From sequence record OR498728.1: 64,000 nt of DNA, one strand, 5' to 3'. The notes beneath the pieces were generated by a model. The model saw nothing but the letters and a program-made list of their open reading frames with translations, made no database searches and was not told where the DNA came from. Source of the DNA: Escherichia phage ZX4221. Position 1 is the stretch's first letter, and each line of letters opens with the position of its first letter. The translations under genes were made by a program, and so were the position numbers. Below, one piece after another: positions 19,765 through 21,304 of the stretch.

Positions 19765-19790
19765 AGTCTCATTTTAATGTAGCTGAGACT
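19765..19790. repeat. conserved hairpin copy 1 (AGTCTCA-loop-TGAGACT)
   Basis: 7 bp stem, loop TTTTAATGTAGC, followed by AACTACCCATAC; recurs at 19896 and 21279. Confidence 0.6.
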
Positions 19791-19801
19791 AACTACCCAT
19801 A

Positions 19802-19856
19802 CCTCACCCTACCAGACCCTACCAGACCAGACCTTACCCTACCAGACCCTACCGAA
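19802..19856. repeat. tandem pentamer array (11 x ACCNN)
   Basis: ACCCT ACCAG ACCCT ACCAG ACCAG ACCTT ACCCT ACCAG ACCCT ACCGA read directly. Confidence 0.7.
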
Positions 19857-19895
19857 CATCACTTAAAAACCCTCTTAGAAGACTCTTAAGTGATG
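19857..19895. repeat. inverted repeat ATCACTTAA...TTAAGTGAT copy 1
   Basis: 9 bp arms, about 19 nt loop; second copy at 21386-21424. Confidence 0.55.
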
Positions 19896-19923
19896 TAATC
19901 GAATTTTAATGTAGCTCCGATTA
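19896..19923. repeat. conserved hairpin copy 2 with compensatory stem (TAATCGa / TCCGATTA)
   Basis: same loop ATTTTAATGTAGC and same AACTACCCATAC tail as copy 1 but a different base-paired stem. Confidence 0.55.
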
Positions 19924-19932
19924 ACTACCCAT

Positions 19933-19981
19933 ACCTCACCTCACCCAACCATACCATGCCTTGCCAGACCGCACCTTACCT
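19933..19981. repeat. C/A-rich pentamer-periodic array
   Basis: CTCACCTCACCCAACCATACCATGCCTTGCCAGACCGCACCTTACC. Confidence 0.5.
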
Positions 19982-20011
19982 CATTAAAAGACCCTCTTAA
20001 AAGACCTTTTA

Positions 20012-20040
20012 AAAAGGAGCCTCCGAAGAGGCTACCTAGT
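20012..20040 (-). terminator. terminator-like hairpin for minus-strand gene 20045..20485
   Basis: AGCCTC-CGAA-GAGGCT; on minus strand followed by CCTTTTT. Confidence 0.5.
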
Positions 20041-20044
20041 CAAC

Positions 20045-20485
20045 TTAGAAAGGTTTTCTACGTTGCTTGTTAATGTTAGCTTTCATAGCAGCTAAATGGT
20101 TTTGCTGTTCAATCAGTCGTGAACGTTCTTGATGACTAAGCGCCATAGTGTTCACATTCTCAATTGCTTGAGTGGCTTGCTTTAAAGCTCGACCAATCTT
20201 ACCAGACATTTTGCGTTTTGCAATAGTTGCTTGATGCTTAGGTTCAACCACACGATAACCAACACCCATTGAAGCAACCAGGTAAATCTTCTCTTCTTTA
20301 AGAAGCTTTTCAATAAACTTCTCAAGTCGGTTTAGACGTGTAAGTGCATAAGCCTTCATTTCATCTTCGTACTTAACAATGTCACCTTGATAAGTTGGCT
20401 TCACAATACCTAAGAAGGTGTCCATCTCGGAATGTGATACAGTGTCGCCGTAACTAAACTTTGCTGCTAATGCTTTTGTATTCAT
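20045..20485 (-). CDS. hypothetical protein (repeat-flanked cassette gene 2)
   Basis: 146 aa, basic C-terminus; no motif recognised. Confidence 0.4.
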   Translation of the reverse strand: MNTKALAAKFSYGDTVSHSEMDTFLGIVKPTYQGDIVKYEDEMKAYALTRLNRLEKFIEKLLKEEKIYLVASMGVGYRVVEPKHQATIAKRKMSGKIGRALKQATQAIENVNTMALSHQERSRLIEQQNHLAAMKANINKQRRKPF

Positions 20486-20487
20486 AA

Positions 20488-21090
20488 TTAAACGTTACCT
20501 TCTGAAATAACTTCTACAGAAAAACGACCAAAGCGTGGACGCCAATCACCTACACCACAAAGGTTACCAGCATTTTCCAGAACCATCAGAAGTTCCTCTT
20601 TGGTGATTTGCTCTTCATCAAACATCAAACCAAACTCTACAGACCAGTCACGGAAGATTGGACGGTAGCTCATAACTCGTGCTGTACCAATCTTAACAGA
20701 CTTAGCATAGATAAAGTCTGGATTCTTAGCAAGTTCTTGTGGGTTTGCTGGACAGTTCTTGATAGTCATTGGGAAGACTACATCTGTCAGCATAATGGCT
20801 CGGTCAATTACCTTACCAAGTTTGTTGAGTTTTGCACCAGACTTGATACAAGCCTCAATCATCTCACCGTTCATAACAAAACCAAGTTGCTCATCGTAGT
20901 AACAAGAAGTTACCAGTTGGCTTTCTGCTAAGAGCGCATAGTCTTCGTCAGTCTTTTTACGTTTACTGGACAGAGACTTGTGATATTTTGTCAGAGGGTT
21001 TAATGGGTCTGACAACGTATCGTTATGGCTCAAGAAAGGACGAGTACCAGTGATTTTGATATTTAGCAGTTTCATAGCATTTAGCTCCAC
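20488..21090 (-). CDS. hypothetical protein (repeat-flanked cassette gene 1)
   Basis: 200 aa; no motif recognised. Confidence 0.4.
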
Positions 21091-21176
21091 ACTTTAGTTG
21101 ATTGTTAAGTTGTTTGTAAAGAACCCTCAACAGAAGACTCTTTAGAAACTTGGTAGATTTTTAACGTGGCTACTAC

Positions 21177-21238
21177 CATCCACCCACACCGTGCCACACC
21201 ACACCACACCATACCCAACTCCACCTAATCCTACCACA
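21177..21238. repeat. C/A-rich pentamer-periodic array
   Basis: CCATCCACCCACACCGTGCCACACCACACCACACCATACCC... Confidence 0.6.
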
Positions 21239-21278
21239 CCTTATTAAAAGACCCTCTTAAAGACCTTTTAAAAAGATA

Positions 21279-21304
21279 AGTCTCATTTTAATGTAGCTGA
21301 GACT
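21279..21304. repeat. conserved hairpin copy 3 (AGTCTCA-loop-TGAGACT)
   Basis: identical to copy 1, with the same upstream AAGACCTTTTAAAAAG and downstream AACTACCCATAC. Confidence 0.6.

Follow-up and report, generated by a model that had tools for sequence, protein, structure and literature searches.

Covarying hairpins in a Felixounavirus as the probable 3′ pseudoknot tails of type II VIPR guide RNAs

The hairpin that recurs in two intergenic regions of this Felix O1-like phage (Felixounavirus) very probably provides stem 2 of an H-type pseudoknot, the constant 3′ tail shared by the guide RNAs (vrRNAs) of a VIPR system. With the same high confidence, the locus that carries it is assigned to type II VIPR, SUSP1 clade. 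VIPR, a recently described form of RNA-guided DNA recognition, has been proposed to be older than CRISPR. It is a phage-encoded, CRISPR-like DNA-silencing system that was introduced in two preprints from 2026 (bioRxiv 10.64898/2026.04.26.720920 and 10.64898/2026.04.26.720927), which describe the system, vrRNA architecture, the tail pseudoknot, the skip rule and the satellite targets. The hairpin, its covariation and the system are already known, and the present analysis reveals no new kind of system. Covering one Felixounavirus and about 40 related loci, it independently confirms three sequence-based claims of the preprints, namely that guides follow a GGY/NN code, that their tails fold into a pseudoknot and that satellites are matched under a 1-nt skip. 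The original prediction had picked out the pseudoknot cap in the raw phage genome from covariation alone. Felix O1-like phages, which serve in typing and biocontrol, carry the system widely.

Hairpin copies and the tail pseudoknot

Three copies of the hairpin had been described in the window (the 64,000-nt stretch of Escherichia phage ZX4221, OR498728.1, analysed here). The two copies with the stem AGTCTCA/TGAGACT around TTTTAATGTAGC (19765–19790 and 21279–21304) and the third copy, TAATCGA-ATTTTAATGTAGC-TCCGATTA (19896–19923), are present with the claimed sequences, and each is directly followed by AACTACCCATAC. The exact 12-mer occurs only three times in the whole 64 kb, and these occurrences are not independent because they lie inside a ~130-nt module that is repeated five times (repeat families D1–D3). 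The original prediction was correct for its three copies but fell short of the total, which is five hairpins with four stem versions in one register. The two additional copies, TGGTAG/CTACCA around TTTTAACGTGGC (tail core 21151–21183) and TGGCAG/CTGCCA around TTTTTATAAGGT (tail core 19636–19668), were overlooked because their loops differ. All versions can be aligned without gaps.

The loop that had been described as conserved is not a mere loop, since its GTAG pairs with the CTAC that had been regarded as simply downstream. This pairing between the loop and the downstream AACTACCC also covaries (GUAG:CUAC, GUGG:CCAC and AAGG:CCUU), and with both stems the minus (gene-sense) strand adopts an H-type pseudoknot. 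This is the functional strand, so the earlier description gives its reverse complement. In the tail of vr1 (type A, 21278–21310, minus strand), which contains the hairpin at 21279–21304, stem S1 is formed by 21307–21310 with 21293–21296 and stem S2 by 21298–21304 with 21279–21285 (7 bp); the type A columns 21305 and 21278 that flank S2 are U:U and unpaired. The tail of vr4 (19764–19796, minus strand) is also of type A and contains the hairpin at 19765–19790. The remaining minus-strand tails are those of vr2 (type C, 21151–21183; S1 GUGG:CCAC, S2 UGGUAG:CUACCA), vr5 (type D, 19636–19668; S1 AAGG:CCUU, S2 UGGCAG:CUGCCA) and vr3 (type B, 19896–19928), the third copy of the original prediction, in which S2 is UAAUCGGA:UUCGAUUA with one G.U pair. 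The apparent mismatch in this copy, A.C when read on the plus strand, is a G.U wobble in the minus-strand sense, and in relatives the same position is occupied by G:C or A:U.

Covariation was analysed in an alignment of tails (22 distinct sequences) collected from about 40 loci in phages and satellites, with 500 shuffles and with displacement of the pairing partner by 1–3 columns as controls. In the two-stem structure, 87.9% of cells are paired, and both sides have changed in 9 of the 12 pairs. The covariation score is 0.492, compared with 0.201 for shuffled alignments (none of the 500 shuffles reached 0.492) and 0.06–0.18 after displacement. S1 is 100% paired in three covarying versions. Tails of one type vary little, as the phages are close relatives, and the covariation therefore comes mostly from differences between paralogous tail types, of which there are four or five, rather than from many independent lineages. 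The hairpin folding energy is unexceptional (z from −0.1 to −3.0), so the structural evidence is covariation, not stability. The claim of a selection-maintained secondary structure is borne out by compensatory changes among the four stem versions in the window and by further variants in relatives.

The stems are 4–5 bp and 6–8 bp long, loop L1 comprises 1–2 nt and loop L3 comprises 7–9 nt and is A-rich. The element had been proposed to be either an RNA element or a DNA cruciform or binding site. The first option is favoured over the second, as these loop lengths suit an H-type pseudoknot only in minus-strand RNA and the G.U wobbles are found mostly there (5 cells compared with 1 on the plus strand, a weak test when taken alone). 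Classical H-type pseudoknots with a loop 1 of 1–2 nt and an A-rich loop 3 of 7 nt include the T2/T4 gene 32 leader and the preQ1-I riboswitch. The tails share with them the very short loop over the deep groove and the A-rich 7–9-nt loop over the shallow groove, but resemble them neither in sequence nor by covariance model, and here the structure would cap a protein filament rather than serve translational control or ligand sensing. Rfam covariance models gave no match in 19600–21500 even at E ≤ 1 and only two irrelevant weak matches elsewhere; a preQ1-like riboswitch was rejected for want of an Rfam match.

Guide tracts and gene layout

The hairpin is a real element but not a stand-alone one: it appears to cap a guide RNA at its 3′ end, and the working part of that RNA is the adjacent GGYNN tract. 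Every pseudoknot terminates a tract of 11–15 pentamers, each with a conserved GGY and a hypervariable NN. In 67 unique tracts of 10–20 units each, the repeat logo reads G 0.78, G 0.98, T 0.80 (C 0.11), N, N, and the lengths of the tracts vary from phage to phage by multiples of 5. When the 64 kb were scanned, no GGYNN-type tracts were found outside the two intergenic regions that flank the gene cassette. All five tracts lie on the minus strand. The vr1 tract (21311–21385) contains 15 YNNGG units with NN = GT TC CA AT GC GG AA GG CA GT AT GC GA TC AT, and the vr2 tract (21184–21243) contains 12 units with NN = AA GT AG TA GG TG AT GT GT GT AC GT. On the other side of the cassette, the vr3 tract (19929–19983) has 11 units with NN = GA AA GC CT AA AT AT TG GA GA AT; the vr4 tract (19797–19856), which is internally repetitive, has 12 units with NN = TC AG CT AG AA CT CT AG CT AG GA AT; and the vr5 tract (19669–19728) has 12 units with NN = AA GC AT GG AA AG TA GA CA GA TT AT. 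The tracts were also considered as clustered T7-type primase sites (GGTC) and as a Shine-Dalgarno-like sponge; the former idea was rejected since C follows GGT in only 15% of units, the latter since A is not favoured ahead of GG.

The locus (~19636–21482) is read on the minus strand in the order promoter P1, two vrRNAs, vipr, vap1, terminator and three more vrRNAs. The vipr gene (20488–21075, minus strand) encodes a minimal RAMP protein of 195 aa; homologues begin at the ATG at 21075, and the GTG at 21090 in the ORF list lies upstream of it. Vipr is 97.9% identical to its phiSUSP1 counterpart and matches PDB entry 36pp_D, 'SUSP1 Vipr protein' (E 6e-128). It has a RAMP fold with an RRM core, a G-loop and a thumb, and its GGY-contact residues are conserved. 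The vap1 gene (20045–20485, minus strand) starts 3 nt past the end of vipr and encodes a 146-aa accessory protein that is 99.3% identical to the product of the phiSUSP1 gene immediately downstream of vipr, and it was named by this position. No sequence match for Vap1 was found in Pfam or PDB, and Pfam returned nothing for Vipr, Vap1 or most of the neighbouring ORFs. Both genes occur together in 117 of the phage records searched.

P1 is a sigma-70-type promoter (TTGACA-N16-TATACT, 21455–21482, minus strand) with 11 of 12 consensus matches that is conserved in SUSP2, Mijalis and Felix O1, and it is predicted to fire into the upstream vrRNAs and vipr. After vap1, an intrinsic terminator-like hairpin, AGCCUCUUCGGAGGCU, is followed by a U-run (20018–20033, minus strand); it separates vap1 from the vr3–vr5 array. 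The downstream boundary of the locus is P2, the sigma-70-type promoter of the next operon (TTGACA-N17-TATTTT, 19589–19617, minus strand), which is also annotated as a promoter in the vB_EcoM_ASO1B record. Further promoters, sigma-70 or phage-specific, in the hairpin or its AT-rich box were rejected, as only weak hexamers are present there and none was detected in the scan. GenBank labels on elements of this kind include 'DR_4', 'terminator' and 'possible binding site of StbAB'. The repeats are not discussed in the Felix O1 genome paper or in a Salmonella-phage genomics paper, and a Bas63 gene-essentiality preprint contains nothing on them.

That the hairpins are instead weak rho-independent terminators between early genes is extremely improbable. 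Pipeline-assigned 'terminator' labels do cover the type A hairpin and an inter-vrRNA inverted repeat in the ASO1B record, and on the minus strand UUACCUUUUU comes after the type A hairpin. However, the U-run is confined to type A and is missing from types B, C and D, the 6–8-bp stems are AT-rich with loops of 12–16 nt where an intrinsic terminator would have a GC-rich stem, a loop of 3–8 nt and a U-tract right behind it, and a terminator consensus scan called only 20018–20033 and none of the five hairpins. Termination would also leave the loop-to-flank covariation, the GGYNN tracts and the target matches unexplained.

A role at the DNA level is very unlikely, if marginally less so than termination; the repeats would then be recombination substrates (like T4-type PeSL cassettes), cruciforms, iterons or origins that move or replicate the cassette. 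The two-gene cassette does behave as an indel between similar intergenic regions, being present here, in wV8 and in SUSP2 and absent from Felix O1 and JK55, and the number of modules per intergenic region varies from 0 to 3. A recombination substrate, however, would not need GGY every 5 nt with NN left free, nor would a DNA element account for pairing that is kept while the sequence changes, including a pseudoknot whose loop lengths suit one strand, for G.U wobbles chiefly on the sense strand, or for an NN code that matches foreign genes. Recombination between modules is probably a by-product.

Satellite targets and proposed mechanism

Satellites were located by BLAST with the tail sequence, and 12 of them were scanned with a mismatch-tolerant script, which was used instead of an exact-pattern scan because natural targets tolerate mismatches. 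One satellite-bearing strain is E. coli EC12 (NZ_CP070229), with the satellite at about 116.7–128.7 kb. When target bases are skipped as the 1-nt rule prescribes, vr1 agrees with the tape-measure gene of one E. coli satellite at 26 of 30 positions (shuffled guides reach at most 22). The match, at the predicted site TCACAGATGGCTGGTAAGGGTCAGGTTATGGCTGA, includes 12 consecutive perfect units, with NN at codon positions 1–2 and the skipped bases at wobble positions. The vr5 guide matches a 387-bp satellite gene at 22 of 24 positions in three satellites, and vr2 matches the DNA of the satellites' own vrRNA tail at 20–21 of 24, a score that owes part to shared G/T-rich composition, given that vr2 scores 17 of 24 against its own tail. 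Among the 12 satellites, the best target of vr3 (18 of 22, in one satellite) is marginal and that of vr4 (19 of 24, in a tape-measure gene) is below threshold. Across 37 phage loci, 51 of the 82 unique guides reach at least 80% under a 1-nt skip, as opposed to 2–4 guides under skips of 0, 2 or 3. In the window, no self-target was found at 80%, the best self-match being 71%.

The locus thus combines the features of type II VIPR, namely a RAMP vipr, vap1 directly downstream, flanking vrRNA tracts, a 3′ hairpin and pseudoknot, and skip-rule targets without self-targeting. Its mechanism can be carried over by homology from the SUSP1 system, whose Vipr is 97.9% identical. Each vrRNA would consist of 11–15 GGY+NN pentamers followed by the 33-nt pseudoknot, which would cap the 3′ end of the guide RNA. 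One Vipr protomer would bind per pentamer and sequester GGY, giving a helical filament in which the NN dinucleotides are exposed. These dinucleotides would pair with double-stranded DNA, skipping every third target base, and the outcome would be a triplex R-loop that blocks transcription. Natural skip-rule targets are present in an E. coli phage satellite (the tape-measure gene, a small gene and its own vrRNA gene), and the system therefore most likely silences a satellite that parasitises this phage. According to the preprints, the 3′ pseudoknot and the filament are visible in cryo-EM of the near-identical SUSP1 system, discrete ~100-nt RNAs seen in small-RNA sequencing co-purify with Vipr, and transcription of the target is repressed (bioRxiv 10.64898/2026.04.26.720920 and 10.64898/2026.04.26.720927).

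These discrete SUSP1 RNAs argue against a cis-acting leader, in which an oligomeric protein would bind the GGU-NN repeats in a TRAP-like manner and the pseudoknot would regulate downstream genes as in T4 gene 32. Such a leader would agree with the position of the two upstream modules between P1 and vipr and with a geometry like that of known regulatory pseudoknots, but the other three modules lie downstream of the operon, beyond the terminator, and the hypervariable NN match satellite genes far above chance. There is hardly any likelihood left for it. Several further ideas were dropped because VIPR explains all of the features and is backed by experiments. These were Rho loading on the C-rich plus strand for antisense RNA, G-rich sense RNA forming replication-priming R-loops, two-tetrad G-quadruplexes, a sponge that captures the CCA ends of tRNAs, attenuation of the TRAP type and PeSL-like recombination cassettes.

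Related systems and orphan guides

The closest system is the type II VIPR of SUSP1, a Suspvirus, whereas the phage analysed here is a Felixounavirus, with vB_EcoM_ESCO45 as a 99% relative. The two systems have the same operon order, and in both the intergenic regions on either side encode vrRNAs that are built of GGY/NN repeats and end in a hairpin with a pseudoknot; the 1-nt skip and the targeted satellite family are shared as well. In the SUSP1 clade a vrRNA comprises 9–16 YNNGG repeats, a range that includes the 11–15 units seen here. They differ in the number of vrRNAs upstream of vipr (one in SUSP1, two here) and in guide sequences. Comparison can also be made with Class 1 CRISPR crRNPs, in which Cas7/Csm3/Cmr4 filaments hold a crRNA with a structured, repeat-derived handle. 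In contrast to these, VIPR has a period of 5 nt, pairs through two of five bases and reads two of every three target bases; it has no contiguous spacer, CRISPR array or PAM; it is phage-encoded; and type II silences without cutting. Repeat finders detected no CRISPR repeat-spacer array here, only the ~130-nt modules and 5-nt periodic tracts, and a Pfam scan of the eight neighbouring ORFs in the immediate neighbourhood found no Cas domains, either of adaptation genes (cas1/cas2) or of a multi-subunit cas operon. The trp leader RNA that TRAP binds in Bacillus has 11 G/UAG triplets with 2–3-nt spacers between them. As in VIPR, a protein oligomer reads a repeated conserved trinucleotide with short variable spacers, but the TRAP spacers carry no information, whereas here they are the guide, and the RAMP fold is unrelated to the TRAP beta-sandwich.

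The minor additions made here are orphan vrRNAs in phages that lack vipr and a guide aimed at a satellite vrRNA gene; in the available parts of the two VIPR preprints, neither is discussed for the SUSP1 clade. Felix O1 has no vipr or vap in its whole genome and has kept one vrRNA with an intact pseudoknot. JK55 has kept three vrRNAs without the cassette at the site, two of which still match satellites at 88%, and each satellite has a single vrRNA but lacks vipr. We tentatively suggest, as a possibility that is rather doubtful, that vrRNAs circulate as stand-alone guides that use Vipr in trans and that guides may target other guides. If the match of vr2 to the satellite vrRNA tail DNA is genuine, it would silence the guide of a rival, and both the orphan guides and this guide-against-guide match are testable extensions of the system.

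The repeated hairpin as part of a minus-strand pseudoknot

The three hairpin copies originally described (19765-19790, 19896-19923 and 21279-21304) were confirmed in the window in position and sequence, but they are not the full set. Each belongs to a ~130-nt module that is present five times: the intergenic region 19545-20044 contains three of the repeats, and the intergenic region 21091-21478 the other two. The two further modules, overlooked on account of their different loops, have the stems TGGTAG/CTACCA (tail core 21151-21183) and TGGCAG/CTGCCA (tail core 19636-19668), so the stem occurs in four versions in one register. 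The genes surrounding the locus are on the minus strand throughout, and on this strand the 3′ part of all five modules has the layout 5'-S1a(4)-L1(1)-S2a(8 columns)-L2(1)-S1b(4)-L3(7, A-rich)-S2b(8 columns)-3', in which S1 and S2 are the two stems of a pseudoknot and L1–L3 its loops. The stem is indeed kept by pairing while its sequence changes, but the presumed loop is more than a loop, as it supplies S1b and L3. Likewise, the downstream AACTACCC is conserved, as had been noted, but not as a separate element: it supplies S1a, the partner of the loop's S1b.

Covariation was analyzed in a gap-free alignment of 22 distinct tails from phage and satellite loci. Pairing in S1 is 100%, with changes on both sides in three of the four pairs, and its versions covary as GUAG:CUAC (tail types A and B), GUGG:CCAC (type C) and AAGG:CCUU (type D). 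All five pairs of the S2 core (columns 7–11 with 28–32) have changed on both sides; every row retains pairing at four of these positions, and 19 of 22 rows do so at the fifth. Across the two stems, 87.9% of cells form pairs. The covariation score of 0.492 (shuffle mean 0.201; reached by 0 of 500 shuffles) bears out the original prediction of a selected secondary structure, and it falls to 0.06–0.18 when the partner is slid by 1–3 columns. The geometry of H-type pseudoknots is established, and an L1 of 1–2 nt with an A-rich L3 of 7–9 nt suits this fold only on minus-strand RNA, in agreement with the RNA element that had been offered as one option. One type B pair is A.C on the plus strand, corresponding to G.U on the minus strand, and relatives have G:C or A:U at this position. 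The folding energies of the hairpins, taken alone, are ordinary. The hairpin is real, selected and part of an RNA.

A VIPR locus with five guide RNAs

In front of each tail lies a tract in which CC (GG on the sense strand) recurs every 5 nt of the plus strand. In a scan of the 64 kb, such tracts were confined to the intergenic regions 19545-20044 and 21091-21478, and those of relatives occur only at the same location and strand. Among 67 unique tracts, which contain 10–20 units, the repeat logo is G 0.78, G 0.98, T 0.80 (C 0.11), N, N, and differences in tract length between phages are multiples of 5. The logo, placement and length steps therefore indicate that GGY is under selection and NN is free.

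A literature search on pentanucleotide repeats in phage intergenic regions led to VIPR, which comprises a phage-encoded minimal RAMP protein (Vipr), an accessory gene (vap) and ~100-nt vrRNAs encoded in long flanking intergenic regions (bioRxiv 10.64898/2026.04.26.720920). The vrRNAs contain 9–16 YNNGG repeats, with conserved GGY and hypervariable NN, and a constant 3′ tail, which in the SUSP1 clade forms a hairpin and pseudoknot; base pairing with DNA is through the NN dinucleotides and skips every third target base, the natural targets in this clade are in a phage satellite of E. coli genomes, and the effect is transcriptional silencing (10.64898/2026.04.26.720920). In cryo-EM, one Vipr protomer binds per repeat (twelve per vrRNA), the 3′ end is capped by a terminal pseudoknot, and a triplex R-loop forms in the bound state (10.64898/2026.04.26.720927). 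The hairpin forms stem 2 of the capping pseudoknot of VIPR guide RNAs. Both the system and this pseudoknot are already known from a 97.9%-identical relative, for which they were reported in 2026. The mechanism was demonstrated in SUSP1, and we infer it for phage ZX4221 from near-identity; covariation, repeat logo, RAMP fold and satellite targets were tested directly here. The vap1 product is 99.3% identical to that of the SUSP1 gene at the equivalent position. Vipr has no Pfam domain match, and its family comprises >500 clusters in public data.

Along the minus strand, the locus consists of the predicted promoter P1 (TTGACA-N16-TATACT, 21482-21455), the guide RNAs vr1 (type A tail) and vr2 (type C), vipr (20488-21075), vap1 (20045-20485), a terminator-like hairpin (20033-20018), vr3 (type B), vr4 (type A) and vr5 (type D), and P2 (19617-19589), the promoter of the operon that follows. 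Phage ZX4221 thus has two upstream and three downstream vrRNAs, compared with one and three in SUSP1. An 8-bp inverted repeat GGTGAGTA / TACTCACC (21427-21466), kept in Felix O1, SUSP2 and Mijalis, overlaps the P1 -10 hexamer. Adjoining P1 upstream is a 62-aa minus-strand ORF (21479-21667), strongly basic and Cys/His-containing (phrog_5428, function unassigned), which is present in SUSP2 and not in Felix O1. Around the P2 -35 hexamer, a perfect 13-bp inverted repeat AAATAAGCTATAA / TTATAGCTTATTT (19590-19636), kept in relatives, may be an operator or terminator. The vrRNA spacers are of two conserved kinds, one with an inverted repeat CAUCACUUAAG...UUAAGUGAUG (19857-19896 and 21385-21424) and the other with an AT-rich box CCUUUUUAAAAGGUCUUUAAGAGGGUCUUUUAAUAAGG (19729-19763, 19984-20017 and 21244-21277); both have AAGAGGGUYUUUUAA immediately ahead of the first repeat and are candidate processing sites or promoters. 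The vr4 tract (19797-19853) contains internal repeats with periods of 15 and 30 nt, and AG and CT dinucleotides alternate within it; this pattern suggests that this guide was built or lengthened through internal duplication.

Guide targets in E. coli satellites

When the locus was compared with complete E. coli genomes by BLAST, only the vr2 tail gave matches, in 35 chromosomes. These sit in integrated elements of ~10–12 kb with a serine recombinase, baseplate and tape-measure genes, a long unannotated stretch and often an HNH endonuclease. Of 5426 complete E. coli genomes, 568 contain the targeted family, which is inserted at several sites (in a DUF72 gene, or adjoining wrbA or tonB). Twelve satellite loci were sampled (L038 4843-16914 and L039–L049); nine contain one vrRNA, and none contains vipr.

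Under a 1-nt skip rule, vr1 matches the satellite tape-measure gene at 26/30, including 12 perfect units in a row (maximum for shuffled guides, 22), with NN at codon positions 1–2 and the skipped base at the wobble position. This site scores 25–26/30 in six of the 12 satellites (26/30 in two, 25/30 in four). A 387-bp gene of three satellites is matched by vr5 at 22/24. The best target of vr2 (tract 21184-21243) spans the last repeats and pseudoknot of the satellites' own vrRNA gene, with 20–21/24 in five satellites (L039 13051, L041 13023, L042 13030, L047 10602 and L048 10614). Against the phage's own tails vr2 scores 17/24, because the tail differences are mostly on skipped bases; it is the last three repeat units that discriminate. 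In the 12 satellites, the best targets of vr3 (18/22) and vr4 (19/24) are marginal, that of vr4 being unconvincing. Skips of 0, 2 or 3 gave background scores only. Across 37 phage loci, 51 of 82 unique guides reach at least 80% under skip 1, versus 2–4 under other rules. No self-target of at least 80% was found within the window. One satellite's guide matches another satellite at 23/26.

Distribution in relatives and other observations

Matches to the 19500-21500 region were found in 230 Felix O1-like phages (Felixounavirus and relatives), of which Escherichia phage vB_EcoM_ESCO45 gives the best (99%). Modules are present in 230 phage records, and vipr and vap1 in only 117. Felix O1 (57.7-kb record) has one vrRNA-like module (L026 2592-2700), in which the type D pseudoknot is intact and the tract partly degenerate, and no vipr or vap homologue genome-wide (L050, L051; best tblastn E 0.38). 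This module is an orphan guide, matching the 12 satellites at only 17/24 at best. In Shigella phage JK55, three modules (L029 2501-3222) lie between the ligase gene and a 127-aa gene, a site without the vipr-vap cassette, and two of the three guides match satellites at 21/24 (88%). Both modules and cassette are absent from Sf14-type Mooglevirus phages.

In public records, parts of vrRNAs are annotated as 'DR_4' repeats (wV8) or rho-independent terminators (ASO1B), and a short repeat just 3′ of the ligase gene in the same region of KhF3 is labelled 'possible binding site of StbAB' (annotations at L001 1755-1812 and 3148-3205, L025 2678-2722 and 4161-4194, and L031 1993-2003). Elsewhere in the window, 15979-16063 on the plus strand weakly matches the sRNA family STnc100 in Rfam (25.5 bits, gathering score 47, E 0.028), probably by chance. 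Dense 10–14-nt tandem repeats at 63000-64000 (units including CTTAACAATTT and TCTGTTAAGAC), with a 62-nt repeat at the window end, may represent an origin or terminal-repeat region.
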